Source: Oscillospiraceae bacterium UBA6370 (GTDB lineage Bacteria; Bacillota; Clostridia; Oscillospirales; Oscillospiraceae). Taken from it: a stretch of 48,369 bases of DNA. The notes below the pieces were generated by a model. The model saw nothing but the letters and a program-made list of their open reading frames with translations. It was not told where the DNA came from and did no database searches. A program made the translations under genes and the position numbers. Shown here piece after piece: positions 5,667-9,271 of this stretch (positions within the stretch are counted from its first letter, which is position 1; every line of letters starts with the position of its first letter). The stretch covers positions 1 to 48,369 of the forward strand of contig DJRC01000081.1 of the NCBI GenBank assembly GCA_002437735.1. The letters run 5' to 3'.

Positions 5667-7496
5667 ATGGCATTTGGCCCCTTCAACGTGGGAGGCGGCT
5701 CCGCCCAGGGCGGCGGCTCTGCCTCCAGCGTTCTCTACGACAACAGCAAAACCCACATCGCGGCCAGTAACGTCCAGGACGCCCTCGACACCGTGCTGGA
5801 CGCGACCCTCCCGACCCTCGTCATCACGGCCCCGGCCGGAAGCGCCCTCGTCATCACCAACGGAAGCACCGTCATCAACGGCACCAGCGGCACCGACGGG
5901 ACCTTCACCACCAAGCTCCCGAACACCGGCACCTGGACCATCCAGGCCAGCAAGGACGGAGAGAGCACGGAGGGCACGGTCAATGCCGCGGAGGTTGGCG
6001 GCAACTACGCAATCACCCTGGCGTACTTCGCCGCCACCATCAACGTCACGGCCGTCGCCGGAGCGGTCGTCAAGGCCGTTTGCGGCTCCGATACCTTCTC
6101 CGCAACTGCGGCCAGCAACGGCAAGGCCGCCATCACCGTGAAGAAGGCCGGGACTTACACCATTTCCGGCACCTACGACGGAGCAGGCTCCAATACCGCC
6201 TCCGTCAACGTCACCACCAACGGCGCCAGCTACACCGCCACGGTGAAATTCATCACCCTGACCGTGACCGCGCCCGCAGGCAGCACCATCACCGCAAAGA
6301 ACGGCAGCACGACCAAGACCGGCACCGGCGGCACCGTCACCTTCTATCTCCCGAACACCGGCACCTGGACCGTCCAGGCGACGAAGAGCGGAGAAACGGC
6401 CAGCGACACCGTCAGCGTCACCGCCTACCAGGCATACAGCGTCGAGCTGGCCTACGTGAAGATTTACGGCGTTACGTGGGATAAGAGCAGCAAAACGACC
6501 CTGACCCGCACCGACGACGCTGCGCTCTTCACCGACCCCGTCCCCAGCGTTGGCGGCGCCGCAGGCTCCTCGCCTTTCGACAAATGCCTGCCCTGGTCCG
6601 GCATGGTGAAGGAGAGCCGCACCGGCGGCGTCATGGTGAAAATTCCGAAGTTCTGGTATAAGTGGACCGACGCCAACGGCACCCTGACGCTCCAGATTGC
6701 CGACAAGGCCGTTTCCGGCTTCCACGTCAGCCCGGCCCACGCGGACCGCGGCGACGGCAAGGGCGAGCGCGACTACGTCTACATCGGCCGCTATAAGTGC
6801 GCCGCCAGCACCTACAAGAGCGAGACCGGGAAGAAGCCGCAGACCAACCAGACCCGCGCCTCTTTCCGCACCAGCATCCACAACCTCGGCTCGAACATCT
6901 GGCAGCAGGACTTTGCGATGTTCTGGACGACCCGTATGCTCTACCTCGTCGAATACGCCAACTGGGACGGCCAGGCGGCCATCGGCTTCAACTGCGGCAA
7001 CAACAGCAGCACCGAGAATATGGGCACCACGGACAGCATGACGTATCACACCGGCACGAAGCTCTCCAGCAAGACGACCTACGGCACCGGCGTCCAGTAC
7101 CGCTGGATTGAGGACCCGTGGGGCAACGCCCTGGAGTGGTGCGACGGCATCTACTTCTCCGGCTCCAACGTCTACTGCATCAACAATCCCGCGAACTTCA
7201 GCGACAGCAGCGGAGGCACGAAGACCGGGACCAGACCGACCTCCGGCGGCTACATTTCCGCCTGGGGCATCCCGACGGTCTCCGGCTTTGAATACGCCCT
7301 CTATCCCTCTGCGGTCGCAGGCAGCGAGACCACCTACATCGCCGATTGCTGCAGCTACGACAGTTCCGGCGTGGTCCTCTGCGTGGGCGGCAACTGCAAC
7401 CAGTACCGCTACCACGGCCCGTTCTACCTGGACGGCAGCTACTCGGCCTCGTACTCGAACAGCGTCATCGGCTCCCGACTCCAAGAACTCCCCTGA
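5667..7496 (+). CDS. DGR target protein: receptor-binding tail protein with Ig-like repeats and C-terminal C-type-lectin-fold (FGE-like) variable domain
   Basis: YDN...NVQDALD fibre motif; three beta-sandwich repeats; IEDPWGNALEWCDG and C-terminal ...VGG...IGSRL pattern typical of DGR targets; the 3' end carries VR. Confidence 0.92.
   Translation: MAFGPFNVGGGSAQGGGSASSVLYDNSKTHIAASNVQDALDTVLDATLPTLVITAPAGSALVITNGSTVINGTSGTDGTFTTKLPNTGTWTIQASKDGESTEGTVNAAEVGGNYAITLAYFAATINVTAVAGAVVKAVCGSDTFSATAASNGKAAITVKKAGTYTISGTYDGAGSNTASVNVTTNGASYTATVKFITLTVTAPAGSTITAKNGSTTKTGTGGTVTFYLPNTGTWTVQATKSGETASDTVSVTAYQAYSVELAYVKIYGVTWDKSSKTTLTRTDDAALFTDPVPSVGGAAGSSPFDKCLPWSGMVKESRTGGVMVKIPKFWYKWTDANGTLTLQIADKAVSGFHVSPAHADRGDGKGERDYVYIGRYKCAASTYKSETGKKPQTNQTRASFRTSIHNLGSNIWQQDFAMFWTTRMLYLVEYANWDGQAAIGFNCGNNSSTENMGTTDSMTYHTGTKLSSKTTYGTGVQYRWIEDPWGNALEWCDGIYFSGSNVYCINNPANFSDSSGGTKTGTRPTSGGYISAWGIPTVSGFEYALYPSAVAGSETTYIADCCSYDSSGVVLCVGGNCNQYRYHGPFYLDGSYSASYSNSVIGSRLQELP
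5916..6379 (+). repeat. Intragenic 32-nt direct repeat (5916-5947 / 6348-6379) encoding LPNTGTWT(I/V)QA
   Basis: ctcccgaacaccggcacctggacc(a/g)tccaggc occurs twice with one mismatch. Confidence 0.85.
7340..7482 (+). repeat. DGR variable repeat (VR) including IMH
   Basis: Ungapped alignment to 7890-8032 (offset 550); all 15 mismatches lie opposite TR adenines. Confidence 0.97.
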
Positions 7497-7503
7497 TGGG
7501 GGA

Positions 7504-7523
7504 CCGGGGGCCGCAGCCCCCGG
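7504..7523 (+). promoter_or_regulatory. DGR post-VR hairpin/cruciform (8-bp GC stem, 4-nt loop)
   Basis: ccgggggc-cgca-gcccccgg just after the target stop codon; no U-tract; matches the geometry of the Bordetella phage BPP-1 retrohoming hairpin. Confidence 0.85.
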
Positions 7524-7565: not shown

Positions 7566-7808
7566 ATGAGACAGAACAAAAAGCACACCCCCGCCGGGAG
7601 GCAGTACGCCAACACCGGCATGGGCGGGACCCCCTACGCAGTCCGGGAGACCACCACCCAAAACGGAGAGCGGCGCTGGGCCATCCAGCGCCGCTCGACC
7701 GCTACCGGGGAATGGATAAGCACCGGCCCCGCGGAATGGGAGACTCCCGCCGCAGCACAGGCCACCCTCGACCGCATCGCGCAGGCGAACGGGTGGCCCG
7801 CGATATAG
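7566..7808 (+). CDS. Small hypothetical protein (80 aa) in the DGR accessory-gene position
   Basis: SD AAGGAG at 7551-7556; lies between VR and TR; Trp-rich, predicted beta strands plus one C-terminal helix. Confidence 0.7.
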   Translation: MRQNKKHTPAGRQYANTGMGGTPYAVRETTTQNGERRWAIQRRSTATGEWISTGPAEWETPAAAQATLDRIAQANGWPAI

Positions 7809-7889: not shown

Positions 7890-8032
7890 CGCCGATTACT
7901 GCAACTACAACAGTTCCGGCGTGGTCCTCTACGTGGGCGGCAACTACAACCAGAACCGCAACCACGGCCCGTTCTACCTGAACGGCAACTACACGGCCTC
8001 GAACACGAACAGCAACATCGGCTCCCGACACC
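7890..8032 (+). ncRNA. DGR template repeat (TR) with IMH*
   Basis: Near-copy of VR; in the VR frame it contains 11 AAC and 6 TAC codons; 38 adenines in 7891-8030. Confidence 0.96.
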
Positions 8033-8170: not shown

Positions 8171-9271
8171 ATCAAAAGAATAGGGCACGTCATGGAACAA
8201 ATCGTCGCGGACGACAACGTCCGCCTCGCCATTTTGAAGGTCAACAGCGCGCATCACCAGCACGGCGTCTGCGGCTGGGTACTCCGTACCCTGGACGAGC
8301 GCGTCGAAGAGCTGAAGCGTATCGCGCAGGACCCGAAATGGCAGGCGTCGCCGCCCCGGACATTCGCGTTCTATGACAAAAGCGCCGGCAAATGGCGGGA
8401 CGAAGTATGCGAGCCGCCCATCTGGCCGGACCAATATATCCACCACATGATTGTCCAGGCCCTGGAACCCATATTGATGAAGGGCATGGACCACTGGTGC
8501 TGCGGGAGCATCCCCGGACGCGGCATCAGCCACGGAATGAAGGGGATAAAGCGGTGGCTGAGGGAAGACCCCAAGGGGACCCGCTACGCCGCAGAACTCG
8601 ATATAAAATCGTTCTATCGCAGCATCAACCCACGGTATGTCATACGGTGGCTGGCCCGGAAGATAAAGGACCGCGCAGCCCTGCGTCTAATATGGGCCAT
8701 CATCAAAAACGGCATCAAAATCGGGTACTATATCAGCCAATGGATGGCGAACGCCATGCTTCAACCCTTGGACCACCTTATCCGGGAGAAGCTGGGCGTC
8801 CAACACTTCCTGCGCTACATCGACAACCTGACCCTCTTCGCCAGCAGCAAGAGGAAGCTCCACAAGGCGATAAAGGCCATCAGCAAATGGCTGACCTCCG
8901 TCGGCCTCCGCCTGAAAGAGAACTGGCAGGTTTACCGGGTCAGTGCCCGCATGGTGTCTGCCCTGGGCTACCGCTACAACCACCAGAAGACCCTCCTCCG
9001 CAAGCGGAACCTTCTCCGCCTGAAGCGCCAGCTCGCCCGCGCCTATAAGAAGATAGACGCCGGCCGAAAGCTGGCCGTTTCTATGGCGGCCGGTCTGCTT
9101 TCGAGGCTCGGCCAACTGAAGCATTGCGACAGCCGCGACCTCCGCCGGGCCATCGTTCGGCCTGGACTAATCAAAATCCTGAAAGACGTTGTGCGAGAGC
9201 ACAGCCGCAAAAGAAAGGAGCAAAGCCAAAAATGGAACAGAACACCCGCACCCAGTACAGCTTCGGCGTAA
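8171..9271 (+). CDS. DGR reverse transcriptase (catalytic motif YIDN; probable ATC start at 8171, first ATG at 8192)
   Basis: RT motifs: DQYIHH, CCGSIPGRG, ELDIKSFYRSI, GIKIGYYISQWMAN (DGR-type IG..SQ), FLRYIDNL, GLRLK, LGYRY; immediately downstream of TR. Confidence 0.93.
   Translation: MKRIGHVMEQIVADDNVRLAILKVNSAHHQHGVCGWVLRTLDERVEELKRIAQDPKWQASPPRTFAFYDKSAGKWRDEVCEPPIWPDQYIHHMIVQALEPILMKGMDHWCCGSIPGRGISHGMKGIKRWLREDPKGTRYAAELDIKSFYRSINPRYVIRWLARKIKDRAALRLIWAIIKNGIKIGYYISQWMANAMLQPLDHLIREKLGVQHFLRYIDNLTLFASSKRKLHKAIKAISKWLTSVGLRLKENWQVYRVSARMVSALGYRYNHQKTLLRKRNLLRLKRQLARAYKKIDAGRKLAVSMAAGLLSRLGQLKHCDSRDLRRAIVRPGLIKILKDVVREHSRKRKEQSQKWNRTPAPSTASA

Follow-up and report, generated by a model that had tools for sequence, protein, structure and literature searches.

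A 48,369-nucleotide stretch of DNA from Oscillospiraceae bacterium UBA6370 (GenBank assembly GCA_002437735.1, contig DJRC01000081.1; the whole of this stretch is hereinafter called the window) contains a diversity-generating retroelement (DGR) whose reverse transcriptase (RT) has asparagine, N212, at the second aspartate position of the catalytic motif C, i.e., YIDN in place of YxDD. We conclude with considerable confidence that this is a working DGR in a phage, that its RT belongs to a large YxDN clade in which Asn212 is the conserved wild-type state, and that residues 135 and 212 of the active site have been remodeled as a unit. Direct support comes from the conservation of Asn212 among the relatives of this RT, from purifying selection, from adenine-specific turnover of the variable repeat (VR), from the co-variation of residues 135 and 212, and from multiple switches between Asp and Asn at position 212.

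The reverse transcriptase and its motif C

The RT is encoded on the forward strand by an uninterrupted open reading frame (ORF; 8192..9271) of 359 codons, and the protein matches the Pfam family RVT_1 (residues 66-244, E-value 2e-17) as well as PHROG 1423, "reverse transcriptase" (E-value 2e-74). The codons of motif C (8816..8827, forward strand) are in frame: TAC (8816-8818), ATC (8819-8821), GAC (8822-8824) and AAC (8825-8827) encode Y209, I210, D211 and N212, and the protein reads FLRYIDNLTLF in this region. A HMMER search identifies the RT of the Bordetella phage DGR, bRT (PDB entry 8ub7), as the closest solved relative (E-value 8e-16). The resulting alignment sets "ryidnltlf" of the window protein over "rymddivvl" of bRT, and therefore places N212 at the second Asp of YxDD.

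The remaining RT motifs are present as well, namely K67/R69, D80, the motif-A aspartate D137, the DGR-type motif 4 ("SQ" motif), and the thumb region. The codons of E135-L136-D137, which comprise the catalytic Asp of motif A and the co-varying residue two positions before it, occupy 8594..8602 (forward strand). Motif 4, IGYYISQ (residues 177-183; 8720..8740, forward strand), aligns with the same motif in 12 phage DGR RTs. The active site of three aspartates, one from motif A and two from YxDD, is incomplete in that D137 and D211 are in place and the third position is N212. The first-pass annotation, made from the sequence of the window alone, had reported both the YIDN codons in an uninterrupted ORF and the intact state of the remaining RT motifs, and was right on both counts.

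An AlphaFold2 model built on 37 members of the clade has a pLDDT of 93.6, and its best PDB match is 8ub7_A, bRT in the active state (E-value 2e-17, TM-scores 0.80/0.87, root-mean-square deviation 2.1 Å). No RVT_1 match other than the RT of the window was detected in the source metagenome-assembled genome (MAG; 1.43 Mb, 85% complete).

Asn212 as a character of the clade

The near relatives of this RT were taken as the best 120 of 795 clusters at 90% identity (E-value <= 1e-10), which span 99% to 45% identity to the window protein and include 3547 member sequences. The motif Y[I/M/V]DN is found in 119 of these 120 clusters, and the exception, P0112, reads YVGG. Further away, among the best 150 of 5320 representatives of 50%-identity clusters (E-value <= 1e-3; 366 at E-value <= 1e-30), Asn is present in 33 of the 147 rows that cover the motif (28 YxDN, 3 QxDN, 1 HxDN and 1 NxDN), and the remaining motif-covering representatives have Asp, save three rows in which an insertion shifts the read-off. 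D137, D211 and all other catalytic motifs are invariant in the clade alignment. P0112, with YVGG replacing YxDN, looks decayed.

At the level of genomic loci, 74 of 78 related loci (9 from IMG/VR and 69 from species-representative genomes) cover motif C, and these comprise 57 with Asn and 17 with Asp. Their host labels are mostly Oscillospiraceae and other Clostridia, and the isolate hosts include Butyricicoccus pullicaecorum DSM 23266, Lawsonibacter sp. LCP25S3_E2, "Bacterium D16-76" and one Oscillospiraceae isolate. The YxDN clade, which is made up of RTs from phage and prophage DGRs, is large and abundant, and comes mostly from gut, rumen and manure metagenomes. Among the named phages that were aligned, only MT838586 (42% identity; YMDN) shares the Asn; DD is found in Arawn, FP_Epona, LBR48, Perkons, cr56_1, cr10_1, Hankyphage p00, VHML, vir215, MT835666 and the BPP-1 protein Brt.

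The RT gene is, by its substitution pattern, under purifying selection, with dN/dS of 0.06-0.16 overall. Relative to loci L014-L017 (77-79% identity), the ratio is 0.06-0.08, and it rises to about 0.15 for L018 and L023 (56-57% identity), with dS saturated. Locus L013 comes from an independent IMG/VR assembly; of 7422 positions, 123 are different from the window, none of them within 8816-8827, and in the RT gene the two have dN of 0 and dS of 0.025. The clusters P0001-P0003 (99% identity) likewise read YIDN.

Adenine-specific diversification

The VR (7340..7482, forward strand) and the template repeat (TR; 7890..8032, forward strand) form a direct repeat of 143 nucleotides with 90% identity. 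The TR contains 38 adenines, 37 of which fall on codon positions 1 or 2 of the VR frame. Over the 143 positions, the two repeats have 15 mismatches, every one of them at a TR adenine (hypergeometric P 2e-10), precisely the clean A-specific pattern described in the first-pass annotation. Of the 57 Asn-type loci, 44 likewise have an A-biased TR/VR pair, and in 43 of these the share of mismatches at A reaches 80% or more; summed over the paired Asn-type loci, 635 of 674 mismatches are at template adenines. The 13 Asn-type loci that lack a pair include 11 with less than 800 nucleotides upstream of the RT, one with a partial RT match (L068) and one in which the RT has two stops (L086).

Turnover of the VR can be followed between close relatives. 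The window and L013 encode an identical RT protein and have no differences in the TR. Of the 143 VR positions, 15 differ between them, exclusively at TR-A sites, compared with 108 of 7279 positions elsewhere. Six further pairs of near-identical Asn-type loci differ by 11-17% in the VR and by 1.3-4.5% in the flanks, the fractions of VR differences that fall on TR adenines being 13/16, 16/18, 19/20, 16/16, 21/21 and 23/24. These comparisons indicate that diversification is ongoing in YxDN lineages, and the Asn-type enzymes appear to be active. In the locus of the Lawsonibacter isolate, L024, all 13 mismatches are at TR adenines despite an in-frame stop in the RT gene.

The spectrum of changes at adenines differs between the two types of loci. 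A-to-C changes account for 34 of 691 A-site changes in 46 Asn-type loci versus 64 of 339 in 23 Asp-type loci; per locus, the A-to-C share yields a Mann-Whitney p of 2e-6, for loci that are phylogenetically non-independent. In the VR of the window, 0 of the 15 changes are A-to-C. The rarity of this change may reflect a different spectrum of misincorporation, with selection on the target as an alternative cause.

Co-variation of residues 135 and 212

Comparison of 58 Asn-type with 117 Asp-type RTs in a single alignment of 175 sequences reveals that residue 135, two positions before D137 of motif A, follows the state of residue 212, with Glu predominating in the Asn-type RTs (87%) and Lys in the Asp-type (82%). 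The 135/212 combinations are K/D (96 RTs), Q/D (14), Y/D (3), V/D (3) and N/D (1) on the Asp side, and E/N (51), Q/N (4), C/N (2) and S/N (1) on the Asn side; neither Lys135 with Asn212 nor Glu135 with Asp212 occurs among the 175 aligned RTs. When the loci are considered, residue 135 in the Asn-type (n = 58) is E in 36, S in 7, C in 6, Q in 4, T in 3, A in 1 and a gap in 1, with Lys in none of the 58, and in the Asp-type loci it is K in 22 and Q in 5. A candidate Glu135/Asp212 case, the locus L011, is an artefact of the tblastn alignment, the residue being Lys in the MAFFT alignment. Residues 214 and 257 also follow the state of residue 212, with Thr214 and Ala257 in the Asn-type RTs and Val and Phe, respectively, in the Asp-type. 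The co-variation of residues 135 and 212, as it emerges from these alignments, is new in the present analysis and goes beyond the claims of the first-pass annotation.

For phylogenetic analysis, trees were constructed with FastTree (175 rows) and IQ-TREE (88 rows), with the motif columns removed from both; the rows excluded were those that leave query residues 80-245 uncovered, three quarters of P0011-P0120, and, on account of odd or misaligned motifs, P0112 and P0198. Both trees require 9 changes between D and N, of which at least 6 are forced by well-supported branches. When all Asn rows and two apparent revertants are constrained to form one clade, the likelihood is 118 log units worse, and the approximately unbiased (AU) test gives p 0.018 for this group, which was defined post hoc, after inspection of the tree. 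On the strength of the 9 changes in both trees and of the AU test, a single origin of Asn212 was rejected. By this phylogenetic evidence, the D/N switch has happened several times, with at least 6-9 changes, a recurrence that the first-pass annotation had not anticipated.

The identity of residue 135 can be traced through these switches. Glu135 is present in the separate Asn lineages of P0176, P0150, P0215 and P0225, and Gln135 in that of P0227, with Lys or Gln in the Asp-type sisters; Asp-type rows nested among Asn rows have Tyr135 (P0131) or Lys135 (P0178). A dedicated search around P0150 reveals a small independent lineage in which P0150 and P0271 are E/N and P0272 is V/N, and the next relatives of which are Y/D, Q/D and then K/D; P0330 (S/N) is a further Asn case from the same search. 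Altogether, the 120 relatives of P0150 include K/D (107), Q/D (7), E/N (2), V/N (1), S/N (1), Y/D (1) and T/D (1).

A sub-lineage of the Asn-type RTs has the motif C variant R-Q-M-D-N, with Gln for Tyr (loci L053, L054, L057, L061, L063, L065 and L067; clusters P0127, P0149 and P0162). In these proteins, the Gln of the "SQ" hallmark is gone, and residue 183 is Ala or Ser. An A-biased TR/VR pair is found in 6 of the 7 loci (12/15, 20/23, 19/20, 19/20, 16/18 and 20/20 mismatches at A), the remaining one, L061, having no upstream DNA. The two changes together have the appearance of another coupled swap in the active site.

Proposed mechanism

In the catalytic scheme that we propose, the catalytic metal would be held by D137 of motif A and D211, the first aspartate of motif C, so that two carboxylates would be enough and the second motif-C position would not need to be a carboxylate in the DGR scaffold. 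The second Asp of motif C in canonical DGR RTs would be partnered with the Lys located two positions before the motif-A Asp; in the Asn-type RTs, this K/D pair would be replaced by an E/N or neutral/N pair, i.e., remodeled as a unit and not degraded. According to a preprint on the cryo-EM structure of bRT (10.1101/2023.10.23.563531), the catalytic residues of this enzyme are D138, D215 and D216, and a putative Mg2+ is located 2.2 and 2.3 Å from D138 and D215. These two residues correspond to D137 and D211 of the window RT.

The AlphaFold2 model of the window RT contains a strand at residues 132-138 and a hairpin formed by residues 205-209 and 212-217. In the palm of HIV-1 RT, the strand of motif A adjoins the motif-C hairpin and, because of this topology, residues 135 and 212 of the DGR enzymes are predicted to be neighbors. 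Physical contact of the two residues and a chemistry of two carboxylates are inferred, as is any consequence for metal preference, for the rate or for the spectrum of errors.

A relevant precedent is the D211N variant of the Ty1 RT, in which Asn replaces the second D of YXDD: polymerase activity is retained in vitro, as the first-pass annotation had stated, with kpol decreased 223-fold and a preference for Mn2+ (PMC2148107). By analogy, one might expect YxDN catalysis to be slower or Mn2+-favoring, and this could be acceptable where only about 140 nucleotides have to be copied. A stronger version of this proposal, to which we give somewhat less than even chances, is that these are the first natural RT lineages without the third catalytic carboxylate, and that they came about through a coupled, repeatedly evolved swap from Lys/Asp to Glu-or-neutral/Asn that altered the chemistry of the enzyme. 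The altered property could be metal preference, rate, or the choice of the wrong nucleotide that is placed opposite a template A; such a change would be consistent with the approximately four-fold lower share of A-to-C changes in the Asn-type VRs.

Alternative explanations

Several observations weigh against the view of the YxDN RT as a working enzyme with a jointly remodeled active site. The turnover of the VR attests to diversification in the lineage and is not direct proof of which enzyme performs it, and the four isolate genomes with YxDN cassettes also carry other RTs (2-10 RVT_1 matches each). In-frame stops are present in the RT genes of 3 of the 57 Asn-type loci (L021, L024 and L086), which indicates that some YxDN copies are decaying. 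Glu135 is not a strict companion of Asn212, given that S, C, T, Q or A accompanies Asn in loci with clean A-biased VRs (e.g., L052, 17/17). On the phylogenetic side, the AU test is subject to the post hoc choice of its group, and the sign test on independent pairs for residues 135 and 212 is under-powered, with 3-4 of 6 pairs in the same direction and none in the opposite one (p ~0.125). Finally, the Ty1 D211N variant has lost transposition, and mutation of the YXDD aspartates disrupts the polymerase function of retroviral RTs (PMC2148107).

Two alternatives had been envisaged in the first-pass annotation. One is a single recent G>A change, from GAC to AAC, that inactivated the RT and froze the DGR, so that the VR would record past activity only; the other is an assembly or sequencing error at position 8825. 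The replacement of D by N indeed takes a single transition, and the disruption of retroviral polymerases mentioned above would fit with inactivation. The first of these explanations, however, is at odds with the occurrence of Asn in 57 of 74 loci and in 119 of the best 120 of 795 clusters, which extend to identities as low as 45%, with the low dN/dS of the RT gene, and with the turnover of the VR between the window and L013, which encode the same Asn-type protein; the second is contradicted by L013, which has 123 differences from the window and none in the motif-C codons, and by P0001-P0003. Clade-wide Asn, selection and the comparison with L013 thus exclude both explanations, and we give either of them only a nominal chance. 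The other possibility raised in the first-pass annotation, a variant active site that might characterize a whole clade, has fared well: the comparison of close homologs that it proposed yields a conserved YxDN clade with varied VRs, with A-specific TR/VR pairs and purifying selection as described above.

Two further explanations accept the clade and assign different roles to its residues. The YxDN RTs could be dead scaffolds or RNA-binding subunits, the mutagenized cDNA being made by another polymerase, either of the host or a co-resident RT. The additional RVT_1 genes of the isolate genomes are compatible with this possibility and defeated an attempt to use these genomes to exclude an RT acting in trans; furthermore, no Avd protein was found, which already sets the machinery apart from the BPP-1 model. 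Nevertheless, we consider a dead scaffold quite improbable: mismatches confined to A are the signature of DGRs, which are found only with the SQ-motif clade of RTs according to the DiGReF survey (PMC3521204), D137, D211 and the other catalytic motifs are invariant in the clade, no other RVT_1 match was detected in the source MAG (at its 85% completeness) or in the phage contig, and the coupled change of residue 135 speaks for an active site that has been maintained. Alternatively, Glu135 could be the third catalytic carboxylate, relocated from motif C to motif A, with a triad of D137, D211 and E135. Such a relocation would account for the restriction of Glu135 to RTs with Asn212 (51 of 58 Asn rows versus 0 of 117 Asp rows) and for its recurrence in the independent Asn lineages of P0176, P0150, P0215 and P0225. 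However, Glu135 is missing from 22 of the 58 Asn-type loci, where Q, S, C, T, A or an alignment gap takes its place, and many of these loci have clean A-biased VRs. Glu135 is therefore not simply a relocated third carboxylate, and an obligatory replacement role was rejected for the same reason; we regard this explanation as unlikely, albeit less so than the dead scaffold. The reading of Asn212 as the wild-type state of an RT in which residues 135 and 212 have changed together is the one that we prefer.

Comparison with known systems

A close known counterpart is the DGR of Bordetella phage BPP-1 (Brt/bRT, Avd, TR and the VR of mtd). The two systems share the order of the tail-protein target with a 3' VR, the TR and the RT, as well as A-specific mismatches, a GC hairpin after the VR, the IGxxxSQ motif of the RT, and the fold of the AlphaFold2 model. 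At the active site, bRT has YMDD and Lys two positions before the motif-A Asp, whereas the window RT has YIDN and Glu; the identity between the two proteins is 23% over the structural alignment. The systems also differ with respect to Avd, which is required in BPP-1: no match to PF05635 was detected in the source MAG (85% complete, E-value <= 0.01), and the small ORFs near the RT have no Pfam or PHROG match, so that no Avd was recognized among them. Avd is not universal among DGRs. Given that catalysis by bRT requires Avd (10.1101/2023.10.23.563531), and yet none was found here, the YxDN RTs may work without Avd or with an unrecognized partner.

The nearest named phages, at 34% identity, are Faecalibacterium phage FP_Epona, Butyrivibrio phage Arawn and Lactobacillus phage LBR48. 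They resemble the window in the "SQW" variant of motif 4, in the order of target, TR, RT and lysis module, and in that no Avd is annotated next to the RT; they differ in having [Y/N]xDD together with Lys135. Compared with Ty1 D211N, which has Asn at the same position and retains in vitro polymerase activity (PMC2148107), the window RT is distinct in that the Ty1 variant is an engineered lesion with loss of transposition, whereas here Asn is a conserved natural state accompanied by a co-evolved second-site change; the YxDN clade seems to function in vivo. A natural Asn in place of the last Asp of the palm motif C is on record for other polymerases, GDN in single-stranded negative-sense RNA viruses and ADN in birnaviruses (PMC9752661), although these are RNA-dependent RNA polymerases, i.e., RNA polymerases of a different family.

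To our knowledge, textbooks and primary papers alike treat the aspartates of YxDD as invariant in RTs. The Ty1 study refers to three conserved aspartates in all RTs (PMC2148107), and DiGReF reports 100% conservation of both motif-C aspartates in DGR RTs (PMC3521204). No description of a natural YxDN in any RT was found in the literature covered, which did not extend to the supplements of the surveys and most subscription journals, and the main texts of two large DGR surveys (Wu 2018, Roux 2021) do not discuss the catalytic motif; an earlier mention of YxDN RTs elsewhere is possible.

An apparently working Asn clade would imply that the third carboxylate is not required in the scaffold of DGR RTs, and residue 135 would be a natural second-site partner that accounts for the tolerance of Asn212. 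The role of the second Asp, be it in binding of metal A, pyrophosphate release or translocation, would become directly testable through natural enzyme pairs, and the same pairs would bear on how DGR RTs reach their adenine-specific infidelity. Together, co-variation and repeated origin would turn what could pass for an oddity into a testable statement on the architecture of the RT active site. There is also a consequence for annotation, in that pipelines that demand YxDD for an "intact" RT would mislabel thousands of proteins, the best 120 clusters alone having 3547 members.

Probable phage genome and organization of the DGR

The window is an entire contig (C30 in our numbering). Because the related IMG/VR contigs span 47-55 kb, and because tail, holin-like and endolysin genes adjoin the DGR cassette, this contig is most likely a phage genome of roughly 48 kb. 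The parts of the cassette are arranged in the order of tail-protein target with VR, GC hairpin, TR and RT; apart from Avd and the YxDD box, the cassette has the features of a DGR, namely an RT with the SQ motif, an A-specific TR/VR pair, a VR at the 3' end of the target with TR adenines at codon positions 1 and 2, a GC-rich hairpin and signs of ongoing diversification.

The target gene (5667..7496, forward strand) encodes a 609-amino-acid phage tail protein, residues 314-609 of which match PHROG 5302, "tail protein" (E-value 6e-51). The VR lies at its 3' end and terminates 14 nucleotides upstream of the stop codon. As regards the C-type-lectin/FGE-like fold of DGR variable domains, the target has no match to the Pfam FGE-sulfatase family; the DGR target of vir215 belongs to PHROG 5302, too. 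In the N-terminal part of the protein, Ig-like Pfam matches are weak and below threshold. The N-terminal half of the gene contains a direct repeat of 111 nucleotides (5852-5962 and 6284-6394; 74% identity) that overlaps weak Ig-like or CarboxypepD_reg-like Pfam matches, and on account of this coincidence the target is probably a tail protein with tandem Ig-like domains.

Just 3' of the target stop codon (7494-7496), there is a GC-rich hairpin with an 8-bp stem and a 4-nucleotide loop (7504..7523, forward strand), located where a DGR target-recognition element would be expected. Folded as DNA, it has a minimum free energy of -16.1 kcal/mol (z -3.3), and 0 of 200 shuffled sequences are as stable. 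Between the VR and the TR, an ORF of 80 amino acids (7566..7808, forward strand) has no Pfam or PHROG match and is probably not part of the DGR machinery. The spacing from VR to TR is 550 nucleotides in the window and L013, and 201-524 nucleotides in 42 other paired Asn-type loci, so that the intervening DNA is longest in the former two.

Metagenome contigs offer two minor observations on this region. Among the contig pieces listed for the runs X2, X4 and X6, none bridges the start of the VR (~7310-7360), and the listed ends are at 7390 and 7363 (X2, inside the VR), 7307 and 7536 (X4) and 7265 (X6). Since the VR and the TR share no identical run of 31 nucleotides, heterogeneity of the VR within samples is a possible cause, a weak hint that we do not use as evidence. 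In all four metagenome runs compared, short contigs match only about 35 nucleotides (7488-7523), i.e., the end of the target gene and the hairpin, and then continue into unrelated sequence; this element seems to be common to other loci of the same communities.

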